This document shows, piece by piece, positions 5,563-11,813 of a DNA stretch of 11,813 nucleotides. The notes under the pieces are model-generated. The model was given only the letters and a program-made list of their open reading frames with translations, was not told the origin of the DNA and ran no database searches. The DNA is taken from IMG/VR virus record IMGVR_UViG_2869947659_000003, positions 1-11,813 of that record, one strand, 5' to 3'. The position numbers and the translations under genes are program-made. The stretch is from a virus. Lineage: Duplodnaviria > Heunggongvirae > Uroviricota > Caudoviricetes. Numbering within the stretch: the first letter of the stretch is position 1; each line of letters starts with the position of its first letter.

Positions 5563-5610
5563 TTTTATTTTTACCCCCTCGTTTAAAAAGTTTTGAGTTG
5601 TGCCTCCCCT

Positions 5611-5837
5611 TGTCTACCTTATCTACCTTACTGGCTCTCATGCCAGTAATGGCGCGGCTTTCAGCGGGGTAGAGTGCTTTTATCCACTATCTACCCCGTA
5701 TCTACCTCCCTGTCTGATTCAGGTAAAATCAGGTAGAGAGGGTAGATAGTAGGTAGACAGTGAAAAAAGGCTGTCTACCTAAGTTAATATACTGAATTAA
5801 ATGTATTTTTCTTTACTCAGGTAGACAGGGTAGACAG
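5611..5837. repeat. Iteron array (candidate replication origin) with a DnaA-box-like site
   Basis: At least 11 copies of TCTACC / GGTAGA-containing 8-9-mers in both orientations (for example TGTCTACC 5611, TATCTACC 5620 and 5688, GGTAGAGAG 5732, GGTAGATAG 5741, GGTAGACAG 5752, 5820 and 5829, CTGTCTACC 5771). TTATCCACT at 5680..5688 is an 8/9 match to the DnaA box. Lies immediately 3' of the primase gene. Confidence 0.7.
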
Positions 5838-5850
5838 CCATTGCAAAAAA

Positions 5851-7599
5851 TTATAAAAACGCGTCGCAATCGTCTGTTGTTATTGCGTTAGTCTGCGTTA
5901 CTCCCTTAACTTTCCGCGTAATATATTCATGTCCGTAAACTTTCGCGGCTGGCTTCATAGCCTTGCCAAAGTCATTTACGTTTAGCGGTTTGCTCCTGCC
6001 TGCGTATGCCATAAACGCCAGATAGACGCGGTAAAGGCTGTTTCTGGTCGTGTACTTCACTGAATCGCCACCGCCACCCATCATCAGGCCGCGCGCTTCC
6101 TCCAGAAAATTCAGGAACTGGCAAAACTCAATAACCGGATCCGTCTGTTGCTTTATTGCCAGAGCTTCATCACCGTCACGCTGTTCCAGTAGTAAAGCCC
6201 GTGCCTTCTCAGGGTCGGTAAAGTTCGCCAGCAAGCGGCGGATAATGACAGGGATTTCAGCCGCGATCTTTTCCGGTAGCTCCCTGTCTTTTTCTGCCTC
6301 GCTTACGATATTGTCGAAGCGGAAAATAACCCGACGACGTGACACGCCTCCGGCCCGTTCGGTGAATATCATCGGGTTGTTATTGGTCGCCAGCACCACC
6401 GCCCTGATTACCGTAGTGAAACGCTTTTCATATTTCGGGTTGATTTCCACGGGGTCGCCGCCCGTGATTTTCTTGATGCCCGTGCCTTCGCCTGTATATT
6501 TCGGCTGGTCTGCCAGGACGATAAGACGACTCCCGACAACCTGCGCACGCCCACCAGCATCATCAAGCGATGTCATTTCCGCGCTTACCGTGTTTTGTTT
6601 CCCCGCTAAAAGGCTGGCGATGTGGGTGAATGTACTTTTGCCGCTCCCGCCGTCTCCGGTGGCCTCAATAAACATCTGCCAGTCGTACCGGTTCGCCATA
6701 ATCATGTACAGCGCGGCACATATACGCATCATCTTGCGCTGGTCTTTTCCAGCTGCGTGATCAAGCCATTTATGAAAGTTTGGCGCGTTATCGCGGATGT
6801 TCTCCCCAGGTGCTGGTGGCGTGTACTCAATGCCGTTGTGCGTGGTGATCCAGTTCTCCGGCGTGTGCGGGGAAAATTCCCCCGTTTTCAGGTCAAGCGC
6901 ACCATTGGCGAACGGCAGCAAATCGCCGGACGGCTCCCCCATTGGTTCGGCAATAACTTTTAACGCTTCAACGGCGTTATTGATCACGCGTTTGCTGAAA
7001 GTGGCCCTGTGCTCTGAATAGATCGCCACCATTTCGCGGCTCAGCTCCATTGTGCTGATCGGACACCATACCCCGCCGCGCCATACGTGAACGATTTCAC
7101 TTTCCGGATGCACACAAACGCCATCAAAGCGCTCGGCAAGCAGCTGCGCGCGCTCACTGTCTGCCATTTGTGCCAGTTGCGTATTTTTCTGCTCCGGCAT
7201 GGTAAGCCCTGCGGCAATATTTTCACGCTCAGCATTCAGATAGCGCCGCCAGTTTTCACACTTCTGGACGTGCATTCCTTCGGGGTAAAAATTTGCGTCC
7301 TGAATATCTGCCGCCGCCAGCTTCTGACCAATCTTTTTGGTCTCCACTAAATCCAGTTCTCCGGCCTGGTACAGCCTTACGCGCTTTTTCCCATCCGGAA
7401 CAATTTTCAGCGCATCAAGTTCGGCAAGCTGATTTGGCCCAAGCCACACAGGCGGCACATTATCGCCGGATGCGGGGCCATCCTGCTCCTGCCATTGTTT
7501 CGCGTGCGACCAGGCATCACTACCCGCGAAAATAATTACCTCTGTGTCTTTGTGTTTTATTCCGCGTGGCTGTTTTTTTACGTTCGGTGCCAGTTTCAT
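5851..7599 (-). CDS. P4-family primase/helicase (alpha-like replication protein; D5-type SF3 helicase with Walker A)
   Basis: 582-aa ORF with Walker A EATGDGGSGKST and a downstream Walker B-like LIVLAD segment; overall resemblance to the P4 alpha / phage-plasmid primase C-terminal region. Coupled by ATGA overlap to the upstream small ORF. Confidence 0.88.
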   Translation of the reverse strand: MKLAPNVKKQPRGIKHKDTEVIIFAGSDAWSHAKQWQEQDGPASGDNVPPVWLGPNQLAELDALKIVPDGKKRVRLYQAGELDLVETKKIGQKLAAADIQDANFYPEGMHVQKCENWRRYLNAERENIAAGLTMPEQKNTQLAQMADSERAQLLAERFDGVCVHPESEIVHVWRGGVWCPISTMELSREMVAIYSEHRATFSKRVINNAVEALKVIAEPMGEPSGDLLPFANGALDLKTGEFSPHTPENWITTHNGIEYTPPAPGENIRDNAPNFHKWLDHAAGKDQRKMMRICAALYMIMANRYDWQMFIEATGDGGSGKSTFTHIASLLAGKQNTVSAEMTSLDDAGGRAQVVGSRLIVLADQPKYTGEGTGIKKITGGDPVEINPKYEKRFTTVIRAVVLATNNNPMIFTERAGGVSRRRVIFRFDNIVSEAEKDRELPEKIAAEIPVIIRRLLANFTDPEKARALLLEQRDGDEALAIKQQTDPVIEFCQFLNFLEEARGLMMGGGGDSVKYTTRNSLYRVYLAFMAYAGRSKPLNVNDFGKAMKPAAKVYGHEYITRKVKGVTQTNAITTDDCDAFL

Positions 7600-7895
7600 T
7601 TTTTACCCCTGAATACGTTAAGCATCTTTTTTATTTCCTGAATATTGGCGCGTGCTTTCTCCCTGCTGGTTGGTTTACTGCGGGGCGCTGCCTGTACCAG
7701 AGAAAAATCACGCCGAAACTGATAAACAGGCATCACGCAATCATATTCGTAGCCTTCACGACGGTAGGTGATGCGCCGTTCTGCCACGCCTTTAATCGTT
7801 ACCATGCCGCCATATTTATCGCGGTAAATATCGCCGTTCATAAATTCAGGACGAGCGGGGCCGCTGGCAGTAACGCCAGAATTTTTATTTTTCAT
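7596..7895 (-). CDS. Hypothetical protein, 99 aa, translationally coupled to the primase
   Basis: ORF; stop overlaps the primase ATG. No recognisable family. Confidence 0.6.
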   Translation of the reverse strand: MKNKNSGVTASGPARPEFMNGDIYRDKYGGMVTIKGVAERRITYRREGYEYDCVMPVYQFRRDFSLVQAAPRSKPTSREKARANIQEIKKMLNVFRGKK

Positions 7896-8405: not shown

Positions 8406-8571
8406 CGCTCAGGAATACGCAGACCTCACCGCTAAGGCGTTTAAGTAAGCCGATGATTGCCCCTGATTCGCTGTCGGTCATCATGCCAGGGTAATCCTCT
8501 GCCAGTGCGCAAATAACTTCGATTTGGTGGGCGCGTTCTGCTGCCTGTTGTAGTGTGATTTCCTGACTCAT
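8341..8571 (-). CDS. Hypothetical protein, 76 aa
   Basis: ORF whose ATG overlaps the stop of the upstream 66-aa ORF (ATGA at 8568..8571). Confidence 0.5.
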   Translation of the reverse strand: MSQEITLQQAAERAHQIEVICALAEDYPGMMTDSESGAIIGLLKRLSGEVCVFLSDEQERRTLISNEKKCGGVHVQ

Positions 8572-8768
8572 AAGCCTACCCCCTGACGAATACGGGCGGC
8601 GAATACCATCACGCAGCCATCAGGAGATTGCTGGCGTGCTTCCTGTTCGCTGGTGGCCACGATGTGAATCACGCGCGGTTGTGCGGTGCTCAGGGCGATA
8701 AAACGCCAGATGTATTTATTCAGGTTGTACGAGTCCCGCCCTTGCGGGTGTATGGTATAATTTCTCAT
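8568..8768 (-). CDS. Hypothetical small protein, 66 aa (possibly Icd-like); first gene of the replication operon
   Basis: Sub-ORF MRNYTIHPQGRDSYNLNKYIWRFIALSTAQPRVIHIVATSEQEARQQSPDGCVMVFAARIRQGVGL, taken from the C-terminal end of the 469-aa track ORF, with a GAGG RBS. Its WRF...PRV..I.A.SE.EAR...FAAR pattern resembles what I recall of Icd-like proteins in P4-like prophages; tentative. Confidence 0.45.
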   Translation of the reverse strand: MRNYTIHPQGRDSYNLNKYIWRFIALSTAQPRVIHIVATSEQEARQQSPDGCVMVFAARIRQGVGL

Positions 8769-8859
8769 AGCTGCCTCGATAATCTTGCTATCGTTGGTGG
8801 TTAGAAGCCCCGTTACTGCTCCTACAGTGCGGGGTTTCGTCGTTTCTGCACCTTGCATT

Positions 8860-8945
8860 AACAAGGTGTAAGTAACTTTATTTATAGGTGGCTTACATGT
8901 CAATGCTTTTATGTAAGACTTTTTATGTGTATATTGTCTTACACT
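8860..8945. promoter_or_regulatory. Divergent promoter/operator region with four TGTAAG / CTTACA half-sites
   Basis: TGTAAG at 8867 and 8912, CTTACA at 8892 and 8938; CTTACAT-N12-ATGTAAG forms an inverted repeat. Sits between the plus-strand RHH-like gene and the minus-strand replication operon. Confidence 0.45.
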
Positions 8946-8964
8946 TTCATTGAGAGGATTACAG

Positions 8965-9270
8965 ATGGCTACAGGTTCAAAAAACGCAAAATCACAATCA
9001 CTGACAGCTCGGATCCCGCATGATGTTATTGAAGGCATGGAATCCGTAAAACTGGACGGTGAAAGCAACGCCGGATTCATAGTAACCGCCATGCGCGGTG
9101 AAATCGCCCGCCGCCAGGCAGAAGGAAGCAGAGAAAACCCCCTGATTTCTTCGCTCGATGCACTGGCGCAGGTGGAAAAACTCGGAATCAAAGCCGCCGA
9201 GGAGATCGGGCAGCTCGTCACTGTCGCACGTGAAGAACTCCAGCGCCGCAAGACCAAAGAACCAGAGTAA
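8965..9270 (+). CDS. Probable ribbon-helix-helix (CopG/Arc-like) DNA-binding protein, about 101 aa
   Basis: Strong RBS AGAGGA 6 nt before the ATG at 8965 (the track ORF begins at TTG 8950). N-terminus LTARIPHDVIEGMESVKLDGESNAGFIVTAMRGEIARR fits a beta-strand/helix/helix RHH pattern. Fold assignment is by pattern, not by search. Confidence 0.55.
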   Translation: MATGSKNAKSQSLTARIPHDVIEGMESVKLDGESNAGFIVTAMRGEIARRQAEGSRENPLISSLDALAQVEKLGIKAAEEIGQLVTVAREELQRRKTKEPE

Positions 9271-9327
9271 TCACCATCAGCGCCGTGGTGTAAGGTATTA
9301 CGGCGCATTGCTATGCAGGACAACACA

Positions 9328-9501
9328 ATGACCGATAAAGAATTGACCAAAACATTATCACCGGCACGGAAAAGACGGCGCAGAAAGATAGAGCATGAAT
9401 CAGAAAGATTCGCGCCATGTGCTTTTGCCCTTGAGCAATTCCTTAAAGAGTACAGGGAAAAGCGCTCATTGCAGGTATGGCAACGAACTGAACCAGACTG
9501 A
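9328..9501 (+). CDS. Small basic protein, about 57 aa (the track ORF begins at the upstream ATG 9313)
   Basis: AGGA 7 nt upstream of ATG 9328; N-terminal KRRRRK cluster; followed by a plus-strand terminator. Confidence 0.45.
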   Translation: MTDKELTKTLSPARKRRRRKIEHESERFAPCAFALEQFLKEYREKRSLQVWQRTEPD

Positions 9502-9577
9502 TTGCATTGCCCACCAGCCGCAAATGTGGCATTGTTGGCAATGCTCATGCGTTGGGGATAACGTGTAGCTTGTGTCG

Positions 9578-9609
9578 AGGGGCCACCGTAGCGGGTGGCC
9601 TTTGTTTTG
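9578..9609 (+). terminator. Rho-independent terminator ending the plus-strand cassette
   Basis: Stem GGCCACC / GGTGGCC with loop GTAGCG, followed by TTTGTTTTG. Confidence 0.6.
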
Positions 9610-9612
9610 CCC

Positions 9613-9977
9613 GTTATTCGGCAATTGTGGCGCTTCTCCACATGGTTGATATAATCCCACTGCTCAGATTCATTTTTTGCGCAGTAGGTTAATTGTTCAC
9701 AAAGGCGCTCCGGCAACGGGGCGCTTTTTGTTTTTATTAGTTTGTAGAAACCTGACTCAGAGATAATGCTCATATTCTGATTGCCGTCAGGGGTGTAAGT
9801 TAAATTTACTCCCTTTTTATCATCAAACATCTGCAACACTCTGGCGTTAACAATATTGGTTTCACTCCCGCCAGTAAGGCCGGAAATAACCGGAATACTT
9901 TCGGCAAAATTTTGCAGATTCTGTTTTTCAGGACGAACGAAGCCCCGCCCTTGTTCGGGAGAATATCCAGTATTCAT
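9613..9977 (-). pseudogene. Possible 5' remnant of a gene downstream of alpA (N-terminal ~120 codons of the 469-aa track ORF); extent uncertain
   Basis: The N-terminal part (MNTGYSPEQGRGFVRPEKQ...EQWDYINHVEKRHNC) has protein-like composition. The rest of the 469-aa frame runs antisense through the plus-strand genes and is Ser/Cys/Arg-rich, so it is probably not a real protein. No in-frame stop exists until 8568. Confidence 0.3.
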
Positions 9978-10029
9978 GGTTAGATCTCTGTATTAGTGGA
10001 TGGGTGGCGGCTGTGTGCCGCCAGCCTGA

Positions 10030-10218
10030 TTAGTGAACTGCCTCGCAGCTGTCCTTCCATGCCAGAACTTCGGATAAAGACCAGCCAACGGAACGACCGC
10101 CCAGCTTACGCCGTGATGGGAATTGTCCGGCTTTTTCCAGGCGGTACCGACATGAGCGGCTCAGGCCTGTAAGTTGCTGACATTCTTTTTCACGTATAAA
10201 GCGATCTGTGCTTAACAC
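10030..10218 (-). CDS. alpA: AlpA/Vis-like winged-helix regulator (prophage excisionase / transcriptional activator family)
   Basis: 62-aa protein resembling CP4-57 AlpA and P4 Vis-type proteins in size, composition and position next to a P4-type integrase. Start is GTG at 10218 with AAGGGGGA upstream. Confidence 0.8.
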   Translation of the reverse strand: MLSTDRFIREKECQQLTGLSRSCRYRLEKAGQFPSRRKLGGRSVGWSLSEVLAWKDSCEAVH

Positions 10219-10583: not shown

Positions 10584-11813
10584 TTATATTTCTCTGGCTA
10601 TTGGCAATGTGGTTACGTTTTCATGTGTTCCCGCCAGTATCCCTAACCGCTCCGTCCACATATCCAGCGCGTCACGTTTCGCATCCAGATAACGGGAATG
10701 GTTATAGACTCGTTGCATCCCTGGCATCTGATGACCTGTAAGCTGCTCCACGACGTGAGGATCCACGCCTAAATCGTTCAGCATCGTTGTAAAGGTGCGC
10801 CGGATGTCATGCAGTGACCAGTGAGGGTGTTTTAGCCTCCTGTGCGCTAATCTACCGTACTGCGACACGCTTGTTTCCTGTTTCACTTCCCCCAGCAATA
10901 AGCCCGTGTGCCTGTTCTGCTCCACCAGCTGCGTGACGAACGGTAGTATTGCTTCCGGTATGGGCCGGAATATTGCCACCTTCGTTTTGCTGTGTTCTTT
11001 CGGCACGGTCCAGAGCATTTCGGTAAAATCCCACTCGCTGATCTCCGATAACCTCAGTTCTACCGTCCGGCATCCGAAAACAATCAGGAGGCGGATTAGT
11101 GCGACGTAGTAAGGGGAAAATATTTTTTTGTCCAGTGCCTGCAATAATTCGCCAAGTTCTTTGGTGCTTAAGACACGCTCGCTTATATCCGGTTTTTTCC
11201 TAACGTCCGCCACACTCATATCATCAAGAACGTTGCTGATTGCATAGCGCCGCCTCCGGCAGAACTTAAGCGCCTGTTTGCACGTCTGTAGCAAGAATCC
11301 GGCAGTAACAGGCGTTCGCTTTGCCACCTGGTCAAAACAGGCCAGCCAGTGCCGTAGCTCGCATTTATCCAGCGGCATAGCACCAATGTGCTGTATTACG
11401 TGATTATTAAGGCGCTTTTTCAGGGCGGCATAATCCACGCGGTTTTCCTTTGCGTACGACTCAAGCCAGTAGGTGAGCGCATCGCCAACCGTTACCGGCT
11501 TTAACGCTTCCTGTACGGTGTAATTAAGCTCATGACGTGGATTTTTCCCCTCTGCCAGCCATGCGCGACACTGGGCGGCTTTTTCCCTGGCTGATTTCAG
11601 GCTCAGATCAGGATAATTTCCCAGCTTAATGCGTTCCGGTGGTGCCCCCCTTCCCGTTCCGGCCCTGTAAGTGAAATACCAGGTTAAAAGGCCACTGGTT
11701 GAATGCCTGACGCTCAGGTTTCCACCGTCATTAAGAAAGGCTGTTTTTTGGGCGGGTGTGCCGTTGATTTTCCTCAGCTGTGTATCGCTCAGTTTGTTAA
11801 GTGCTCTGCTCAT
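10584..11813 (-). CDS. int: P4-type tyrosine integrase (site-specific recombinase)
   Basis: 409-aa ORF with N-terminal arm-binding-like region and C-terminal catalytic motifs (HDIRRT, GHQ, RVYNHSRYL with the catalytic Tyr). The ATG is at the window edge; alignment with the P4 Int N-terminus suggests this is close to the true start. Confidence 0.93.
   Translation of the reverse strand: MSRALNKLSDTQLRKINGTPAQKTAFLNDGGNLSVRHSTSGLLTWYFTYRAGTGRGAPPERIKLGNYPDLSLKSAREKAAQCRAWLAEGKNPRHELNYTVQEALKPVTVGDALTYWLESYAKENRVDYAALKKRLNNHVIQHIGAMPLDKCELRHWLACFDQVAKRTPVTAGFLLQTCKQALKFCRRRRYAISNVLDDMSVADVRKKPDISERVLSTKELGELLQALDKKIFSPYYVALIRLLIVFGCRTVELRLSEISEWDFTEMLWTVPKEHSKTKVAIFRPIPEAILPFVTQLVEQNRHTGLLLGEVKQETSVSQYGRLAHRRLKHPHWSLHDIRRTFTTMLNDLGVDPHVVEQLTGHQMPGMQRVYNHSRYLDAKRDALDMWTERLGILAGTHENVTTLPIAREI

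Follow-up and report, generated by a model that had tools for sequence, protein, structure and literature searches.

The long open reading frame and the genes within it

The subject of this study is a 469-codon open reading frame (ORF) on the minus strand of an 11,813-nucleotide stretch of DNA, IMG/VR virus record IMGVR_UViG_2869947659_000003, which is here called the window. The window is a Gram-negative phage-inducible chromosomal island (PICI), read along its minus strand, and a 2-kb region around the ORF shares 94.7% identity with EcCICFT073, the model island of Escherichia coli CFT073, where the ORF has 428 codons. The ORF begins with ATG and occupies positions 8568..9977. Its frame is free of stops from 8568 to 9992 and is the only minus-strand frame of which this is true; between 8500 and 10050 the remaining two are interrupted by 31 and 30 stops. 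It lies downstream of, and in the same direction as, alpA (10030..10218, minus strand; PF05930, E 3e-18). It is probably a translated leader ORF similar to eta of phage P4, with a kil gene nested in it and a 5' end fused to remnants of antirepressor genes.

From start to stop the ORF is a mosaic of antirepressor fragments, antisense stretches and an Icd-like gene, which agrees with a first, sequence-only reading of the window that had called it chimeric. Codons 1–80 (9738..9977, minus strand) are the antirepressor part. Codons 81–159, a spacer at 9502..9737 on the minus strand, run opposite two plus-strand terminator hairpins and have neither homology nor amino-acid constraint. Codons 160–222 are opposite a 62-aa plus-strand ORF, codons 237–338 are opposite ylcI, the whole of which is contained antisense in the long ORF, codons 339–403 cover a divergent promoter/operator region and a leader, and codons 404–469 are the Icd-like gene. 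The first reading had ascribed a protein-like composition to both ends. This was borne out for the C-terminal 66 aa, which match a curated family (NF033153), and only in part for the N-terminal 120 or so, where aa 1–80 alone are homologous to anything and aa 81–120 are antisense to the second terminator. It had also described the middle as antisense to a plus-strand cassette and rich in serine, cysteine and arginine, and so it is: these residues make up 34–37% of the product opposite ylcI and the 62-aa ORF as compared to 11–18% elsewhere, the richness being confined to the two stretches that face plus-strand genes.

The Icd-like gene, kil (8568..8768, minus strand), is nested in frame at the 3' end of the ORF, and its 66-aa product matches the phage_ICD_like model NF033153 over aa 19–62 (E 3.5e-20, 71.8 bits against a cut-off of 25). 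The Kil protein of P4 matches the same model (E 1.6e-21), and it is only through this NCBIfam profile that the kinship is visible; BLASTP of the window's Kil region against P4 Eta gave no match, and tblastn of a 96-aa extended Kil against phages gave one weak match only. By its profile Kil is placed among the Icd-like cell-division inhibitors, and an inhibiting activity is predicted. The gene has its own GAGG ribosome-binding site, and a predicted promoter for kil and the replication operon (8875..8903, minus strand; TTGACA-17-TAAAGT) lies inside the long ORF, its TTGAC motif being kept in nearly all of the 20 relatives compared. The ratio of non-synonymous to synonymous polymorphism (pN/pS), which rests on few substitutions with the window in every pair, is 0.39 for kil in the frame of the ORF (1.57 and 0.81 in the other frames), 0.59 for the spacer (0.82 and 0.64) and 1.44 for the leader (0.99 and 0.86). 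The ribosome-binding site, the promoter-like site, the ratio for kil and the RefSeq annotation of the relatives uphold the earlier suggestion that the 66-aa part is a gene of its own, the first of the replication operon. It is independently initiated and stands at the head of that operon.

Between the promoter-like site and kil lies a structured leader RNA (8769..8868, minus strand), also inside the long ORF, with three hairpins (z -3.4). In a trimmed alignment with a named structure, compensatory changes back two of the three hairpins, with covariation in 10 of 19 pairs, and pairing was found in 87% of cells as compared to 30–41% when the partners were slid. A leader with one hairpin, given by the first RNAalifold run, was rejected as due to alignment problems. 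One hairpin of the leader is followed by an invariant UCUAACCAC, and a second hairpin adjoins or covers the ribosome-binding site of kil, with compensatory changes across genera. No Rfam family matched the leader. It could be an RNA element that has not been described before, or else a highly diverged relation of the immunity region in P4.

On the plus strand, ylcI (8965..9270) codes for a member of the YlcI/YnfO family. The protein matches NF041551 (E 2e-20, 72.5 bits against a cut-off of 30, aa 9–50) and phrog_6522 (E 3e-57), and the gene has a GAGAGGA ribosome-binding site. YlcI is probably a ribbon-helix-helix protein, the signals for this being weak (Pfam PSK_trans_fac, E 0.007; the ribbon-helix-helix protein CopG in PDB, E 0.25, not significant). 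The possibility that ylcI is itself an artefact was rejected because it matches a curated family that is present in other contexts too, has a ribosome-binding site and terminators of its own, and covaries with operators. These operator-like repeats, four copies of TGTAAG/CTTACA at 8863..8947, bracket the -35 element of the promoter-like site of kil. Relatives (L003–L014, L044, L093 and others, cited here by locus number) have three to four repeats that are specific to the lineage in sequence and conserved in position, and the type of repeat tracks the N-terminal strand of YlcI (KSQxxxxR), not the host. The strand KSQSLTARI is paired with the repeat TGTAAG, KSQLTTVRV with GTGTTTC in both E. coli and Photorhabdus, and KSKQISIRI with GTGATTC in both E. 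coli and Yersinia. Since the recognition strand covaries with the repeats, YlcI is a candidate for the PICI repressor, and the sequences suggest that it would bind these operators and repress the kil-primase operon in the manner of an immunity repressor. The literature that we searched holds no description of a repressor role for YlcI in these islands.

The basic 62-aa ORF downstream of ylcI (9313..9501, plus strand) matches phrog_21027 (E 1.6e-15) and is annotated by RefSeq as 'hypothetical protein' in L001 and L098. Its pN/pS in frame is about 0.3 and its gaps come in multiples of three, and it is probably a real gene. Two terminator-like hairpins follow on the same strand. The first (9578..9610; GGGGCCACC...GGUGGCCUU then UUGUUUUG; -20.6 kcal/mol, z -2.1) escaped the terminator scanner and was found by folding, and the second, an intrinsic-terminator-like hairpin with a U-run at 9699..9737 (scanner 9701–9728 plus the T-run; -20.5 kcal/mol, z -5.0), marks the end of the cassette.

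The start codon of the long ORF is supplied by the decayed antirepressor, which consists of the 5' end of an antA gene and a Bro-N fragment. Residues 1–49 share 80% identity with the opening 49 aa of an AntA-family gene in L023, 266 aa long, and residues 42–80 are 78% identical to aa 57–97 of an intact 192-aa Bro. Neither domain is complete: aa 1–80 have no Pfam match, Bro-N (PF02498) reaching 13.8 bits against a cut-off of 25.6 and AntA (PF08346) also failing to reach its threshold, and the PHROG anti-repressor matches cover aa 49–90 only. According to the sequence-only reading, the plus-strand cassette had been inserted into a gene downstream of alpA. The relatives contradict this, as L003, L037 and L093 have an intact bro together with the same cassette and a long ORF that begins downstream of bro. 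In L037 the spacer segment sits downstream of the intact bro, and in L023, L005 and L010 an intact antA gene is coupled to the long ORF. The window, L001, L002, L055 and CFT073 have in common a junction ...YKLI/KTKS... (at about 9738), where the bro fragment is joined in frame. A deletion thus took the 3' part of bro and 145 nt of spacer, fusing the antirepressor remnant in frame to a long ORF that was already there, so that the ORF of the window and of EcCICFT073 uses the start codon of the decayed antA/bro.

Conservation of the open frame in relatives

The frame of the long ORF shares its third codon positions with ylcI and the 62-aa ORF. With synonymous codons resampled, the probability of no antisense stop is 0.30–0.40 opposite ylcI and 0.6–0.8 opposite the 62-aa ORF, and dinucleotide shuffles gave a probability of an open frame of 0.0064 for 8769–8964 and 0.052 for 9502–9737. 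For the window alone, the product of the resampling and shuffle values is about 5e-5. The remark in the first reading that this is the frame which commonly stays open opposite real genes holds opposite ylcI and the 62-aa ORF, and does not extend to the promoter/operator region and the 3' flank, which are open in at least eight genera.

The relatives comprise 95 loci with ylcI, and 22 non-redundant loci from E. coli, Enterobacter, Superficieibacter, Pantoea, Lelliottia, Yersinia, Photorhabdus, Xenorhabdus and Pseudomonas were used for the intergenic analysis. In 93 of the 95 no stop interrupts the frame across ylcI, the homologous open frames being 200–820 codons long, and in 91 of the 94 loci with icd it is either continuous with icd or ends 6–20 nt before it. 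The ORF frame runs without a stop through the intergenic region between kil and ylcI (171–214 nt, 35–48% GC) in 17 of the 22 loci, and has a single stop 6–20 nt before the start of kil in four and two stops in L009, as compared to means of 5.6 and 5.7 stops in the other two frames; the shuffle probability of an open region is 0.003–0.03 per locus. Eleven distinct lengths of the region were found, all of them 1 mod 3. Over 300 nt past the ylcI stop, the ORF frame is stop-free in 16–18 of the 22.

As controls we used ylcI and ynfO of E. coli K-12, from lambdoid prophages, where they lie next to nohD and nohA; they were fetched since tblastn of YlcI against 50,697 phage records found no match and gave no lambdoid set. 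In both, the corresponding frame is open within the gene and shut 24–51 nt outside it. It was also possible to observe that each of the two genes (ylcI, L096 6252–6446; ynfO, L097 4757–4990) is divergent from a homologue of the small terminase, nohD and nohA respectively, and the YlcI/YnfO family may also act at divergent promoters of lambdoid prophages.

The start of the frame is conserved in another way. The first ATG, with a Shine-Dalgarno sequence before it, overlaps the stop codon of the preceding minus-strand gene or lies directly against it in several genera. The overlap is GGAGGaaaacagccATGtgTAA (ATGnnTAA type) in E. coli (L023, L095), ATGtaTAA in Pseudomonas (L010), ATGcgTAA in Yersinia (L006), ATGA in Photorhabdus (L005) and TGATG in Xenorhabdus (L011), the last one being found also in P4. 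This is the geometry of translated operon genes, and also that of vis and eta in P4.

The long ORF could be an accidental read-through, that is, a shared-wobble frame left open by the codon composition of the plus strand and then taken up by gene calling, so that only the 66-aa gene and the plus-strand genes would be real. Openness opposite ylcI and the 62-aa ORF is expected on this explanation, the K-12 genes are likewise open within the gene, RefSeq annotates short genes only, and the antisense-type composition and the lack of a fold or a family match point the same way. What it leaves unexplained is the stop-free promoter/operator region and 3' flank in 17–18 of the 22 lineages (shuffle P 0.003–0.03 each), the length changes that preserve the frame, the ATG/stop overlaps with Shine-Dalgarno sequences in several genera, and the frame ends within 20 nt of the kil start. 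Accidental read-through is already disfavoured by the intergenic openness and the start/stop overlaps, and we consider it very improbable. The earlier view that the read-through is incidental thus has to be given up, because insertions and deletions keep the frame, the overlaps couple the ORF to the upstream gene, and the control frames close so near to their genes. That the openness of the frame is under selection is, to our mind, very likely.

Several observations weigh against the ORF being a translated leader of the P4 type. The loci have a common ancestry, so that lineage counts are not fully independent, and the pN/pS ratios share the thin basis given above. The frame is broken in L039, L046, L008 and L009. 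In the window the ORF starts 53 nt from the alpA stop with a weak ribosome-binding site, which is not the overlap geometry, and L037 and L093 offer no evident start codon for the frame other than a TTG situated 145 nt past bro. In L079 and L085, finally, the ORF starts 919 nt from alpA, past a plus-strand gene.

Some relatives have a gene for a 178-aa predicted membrane protein between ylcI and alpA (L079 3157–3693, plus strand). In this type of locus a mere 38 nt separates ylcI from the start of the long ORF, and read-through would leave about 900 nt of untranslated antisense RNA. The arrangement is an exception that the model leaves unexplained.

Another explanation is that the ORF codes for one functional multi-domain protein of a 'Bro network', with an antirepressor N-terminus, a linker and an Icd-like C-terminus, whose sequence matters. 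Homologues over the full length are abundant (63–99% identity, 100% coverage) and hundreds of database entries name them 'Icd-like protein'; this name derives from a C-terminal model of 48 residues. P4 eta and the Bro-zone genes of PICIs have been treated as domain-swapping proteins (PMC10111431), and in several relatives, P0094 and P0099 among them, Bro-N/AntA and Icd-like parts stand in one frame. The first reading had looked to a search over the full length for a decision; its outcome is ambiguous, as homologues at 100% coverage are plentiful and no curated family extends over the middle. Searches of Pfam, NCBIfam and PHROG found no family there, the AntA and Bro-N parts are fragmentary and fall short of all domain thresholds, and the middle 320 residues are either dictated by the opposite strand or free of amino-acid constraint. 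The N-terminal third is variable in length, and like the middle it cannot be aligned between genera. AlphaFold2, given the 469-aa product and 38 homologues, predicted no fold (mean pLDDT, the predicted local distance difference test score, 28.9), which is weak negative evidence only. Furthermore, L003, L037 and L023 have the antirepressor as a separate and complete gene in another frame or ORF. We find such a protein hard to credit; it seems of no consequence which amino acids the long product contains outside kil and the ylcI overlap.

The same division is seen in the annotation. RefSeq gives a 66–68-aa Icd-like gene and ylcI as separate short genes in complete genomes, in conflict with many GenBank and metagenome records, which have a single 'Icd-like protein' of 316–540 aa and drop ylcI; one cluster of these is found on at least 1000 contigs.

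Comparison with P4 and other systems

We think it fairly probable that the long ORF is the local form of a conserved nested leader ORF of the P4 eta/kil type, in which translation itself is selected. In the P4 record, vis is followed by the eta ORF, which starts with ATGATG over the vis stop, contains C4/CI and isrK/seqA, and ends in the 65 codons of kil. In close P4 relatives, the frame stays open for 124–160 codons ahead of kil in 77 of 80 loci. The account of P4 in PMC10111431, which cites Forti et al. 1999 (J Bacteriol 181:5225), has full-length Eta made only from the upstream late promoter and Eta translationally coupled to the alpA homologue, and adds that 'Eta translation prevents termination'; the paper also notes that the genes of the PICI 'Bro zone' resemble eta. 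The window and P4 agree in having a long ORF whose 3' end is formed by a short NF033153 gene in the same frame. In each, the long ORF starts upstream of an internal promoter and follows a gene of the alpA/vis type. In both, the ORF is odd in composition, only its translation seems to matter, and the primase operon lies downstream.

The two systems also differ. The ORF of the window type is two to four times longer than that of P4, in the window its start comes from a decayed antirepressor and does not overlap the alpA stop, and it has a protein gene, ylcI, and operators embedded antisense in it. A further point on the negative side of the balance is that the window is without the C4/CI RNA, the seqA/isrK RNAs and the Phage_ASH region of P4, and its immunity mechanism therefore differs from that of P4. 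Rfam searches for C4/CI-type RNA, isrK and c4-a1b1 gave chance matches only (mir-3927, SprD), with the whole window searched at E<=1 and 8540–9000 at E<=10, and on these searches a P4-type RNA immunity element in the window was rejected. Phage_ASH (PF10554) matches P4 Eta (E 3.7e-23) and found no match in the ORF of the window, L003 or L004.

Both kinds of module can be found in the same locus. In two of 20 ylcI loci, E. coli-type L057 (952–3412) and L020 (1768–3394; both minus strand, locus coordinates), the ylcI module is followed downstream by a P4-type isrK and C4 module, which lies inside the same open frame, 820 codons long in L057.

The immI region of P1 and P7 (c4 RNA, icd, ant) resembles the window in that a small Icd-like gene stands behind a structured leader and before further genes, with antirepressor genes nearby. 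It differs in its C4 RNA, which was not detected in the window, and in the gene order, ant/bro being upstream of icd in the window. To our knowledge, a long nested ORF is not a described feature of P1. The stl/str (rpr) region of Gram-positive PICIs and Staphylococcus aureus pathogenicity islands (PMC6092414) likewise has the gene of a small DNA-binding protein divergent from the replication operon with operator repeats between them, which in the window are predicted. YlcI is, however, unrelated to Stl, its gene has alpA on one side and the replication genes on the other, with the ORF overlapping it in antisense, and its role as a repressor is putative.

The part of the ORF that faces ylcI and the 62-aa ORF is similar to 'shadow' antisense ORFs, which use the frame with shared third positions and are rich in serine, cysteine and arginine. 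Shadow ORFs stop close to the limits of the gene opposite them, as is the case for K-12 ylcI and ynfO, whereas the long ORF runs for hundreds of bases beyond both sides, and does so in many lineages. Compared with the Bro-N/AntA genes of the PICI 'Bro zone' (PMC10111431), the ORF has the same place after alpA and homology in aa 1–49 and aa 42–80; the window has fragments where relatives have intact, separate genes for a 192-aa Bro and a 266–280-aa AntA.

Translation, read-through and the island

By analogy with P4, the long ORF would be translated only on transcripts from an upstream, AlpA-dependent promoter. Ribosomes passing over the antisense RNA, some 1.2 kb that is otherwise non-coding, would shield the transcript from premature (Rho-dependent) termination, and the shielded transcript would reach kil and the primase operon. 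Whether protection from premature termination is the function selected for is, on this analogy, an even call. The openness may instead be selected for control of ylcI (by ribosome-covered antisense RNA or RNase III targeting), for stabilisation of the long mRNA, or for bringing ribosomes to kil through coupling or re-initiation. Complementarity between the ORF and the ylcI mRNA is complete, in four lineages the ORF ends 6–20 nt before the ATG of kil, which is a coupling distance, and the ribosome-binding site of kil is at or in a conserved hairpin that upstream ribosomes could melt. These roles are compatible with the anti-termination model and the data do not separate the two; the experimentally supported precedent, P4 eta, is nevertheless one of anti-termination, and we regard it as rather unlikely that the frame is kept open for such roles and not for protection from Rho.

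Experiments on EcCICFT073, which concern expression and replication, agree with an AlpA-driven read-through. A reporter fused to ORF3, the gene after alpA, is AlpA-dependent, over-expressed AlpA leads to pri-dependent replication, and the authors state that AlpA somehow switches the island on, the global repressor being 'unclear' (PMC6092414).

In the window, the gap between the alpA stop and the start of the long ORF holds a strong hairpin (10003–10026, minus strand; -17.3 kcal/mol, z -5.0) that has no U-run. AlpA of Pseudomonas is a processive antiterminator, and this hairpin could for that reason be a regulatory pause or termination signal.

The remaining features of the island lie on either side. 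In minus-strand order, the integrase (10584–11813) and alpA precede the long ORF, and after it come several small genes, DUF4222 (7596–7895) and a D5/P4-type primase (5851–7599). Beyond the primase are an iteron-rich origin, ssb, a lambda-E-type capsid gene and a head-decoration gene. The iterons, GTCTACC/GGTAGAC in both orientations, form a dense array at 5608–5842 just downstream of the primase gene and include a 39-nt inverted repeat. The array is probably the replication origin of the island, and it was the source of the spurious mir-3927 matches in Rfam. At the end with the late genes, an IS3-family insertion sequence (1–1157; HTH_Tnp_1 orfA 855–1157, rve orfB 1–819, which runs off the window) cuts the left end of the island, and the packaging module may be truncated.

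In the quiescent state, YlcI bound to the repeats around the kil promoter would keep the operon off, and read-through transcription, which runs against ylcI, would help to silence it. It is conceivable, as a tentative extension of the nested leader ORF, that YlcI is the master repressor of EcCICFT073-type islands. The ORF, free in its sequence and necessarily translated, would then pass head-on through ylcI and its operators, and AlpA-dependent read-through would survive termination, silence ylcI by collision and antisense pairing, and activate kil and the primase operon.

For annotation, there are thousands of entries that call the product a 320–540-aa 'Icd-like protein' where RefSeq has a 66-aa gene and ylcI. 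Both layers are probably real and of different kinds, and the long product should probably not be treated as a domain protein. The conserved leader, which is probably translated, the nested kil and the divergent ylcI are targets that can be mutated in order to see how induction of EcCICFT073 reaches the replication genes, and the locus provides a clear instance of an ORF that stays open with no constraint on its amino acids and overlaps a real gene on the opposite strand. If the head-on switch is true, it would be a protein-repressor variant of the RNA-based immunity of P4, and would show, in nature, selection acting on translation alone along the antisense strand of another gene.

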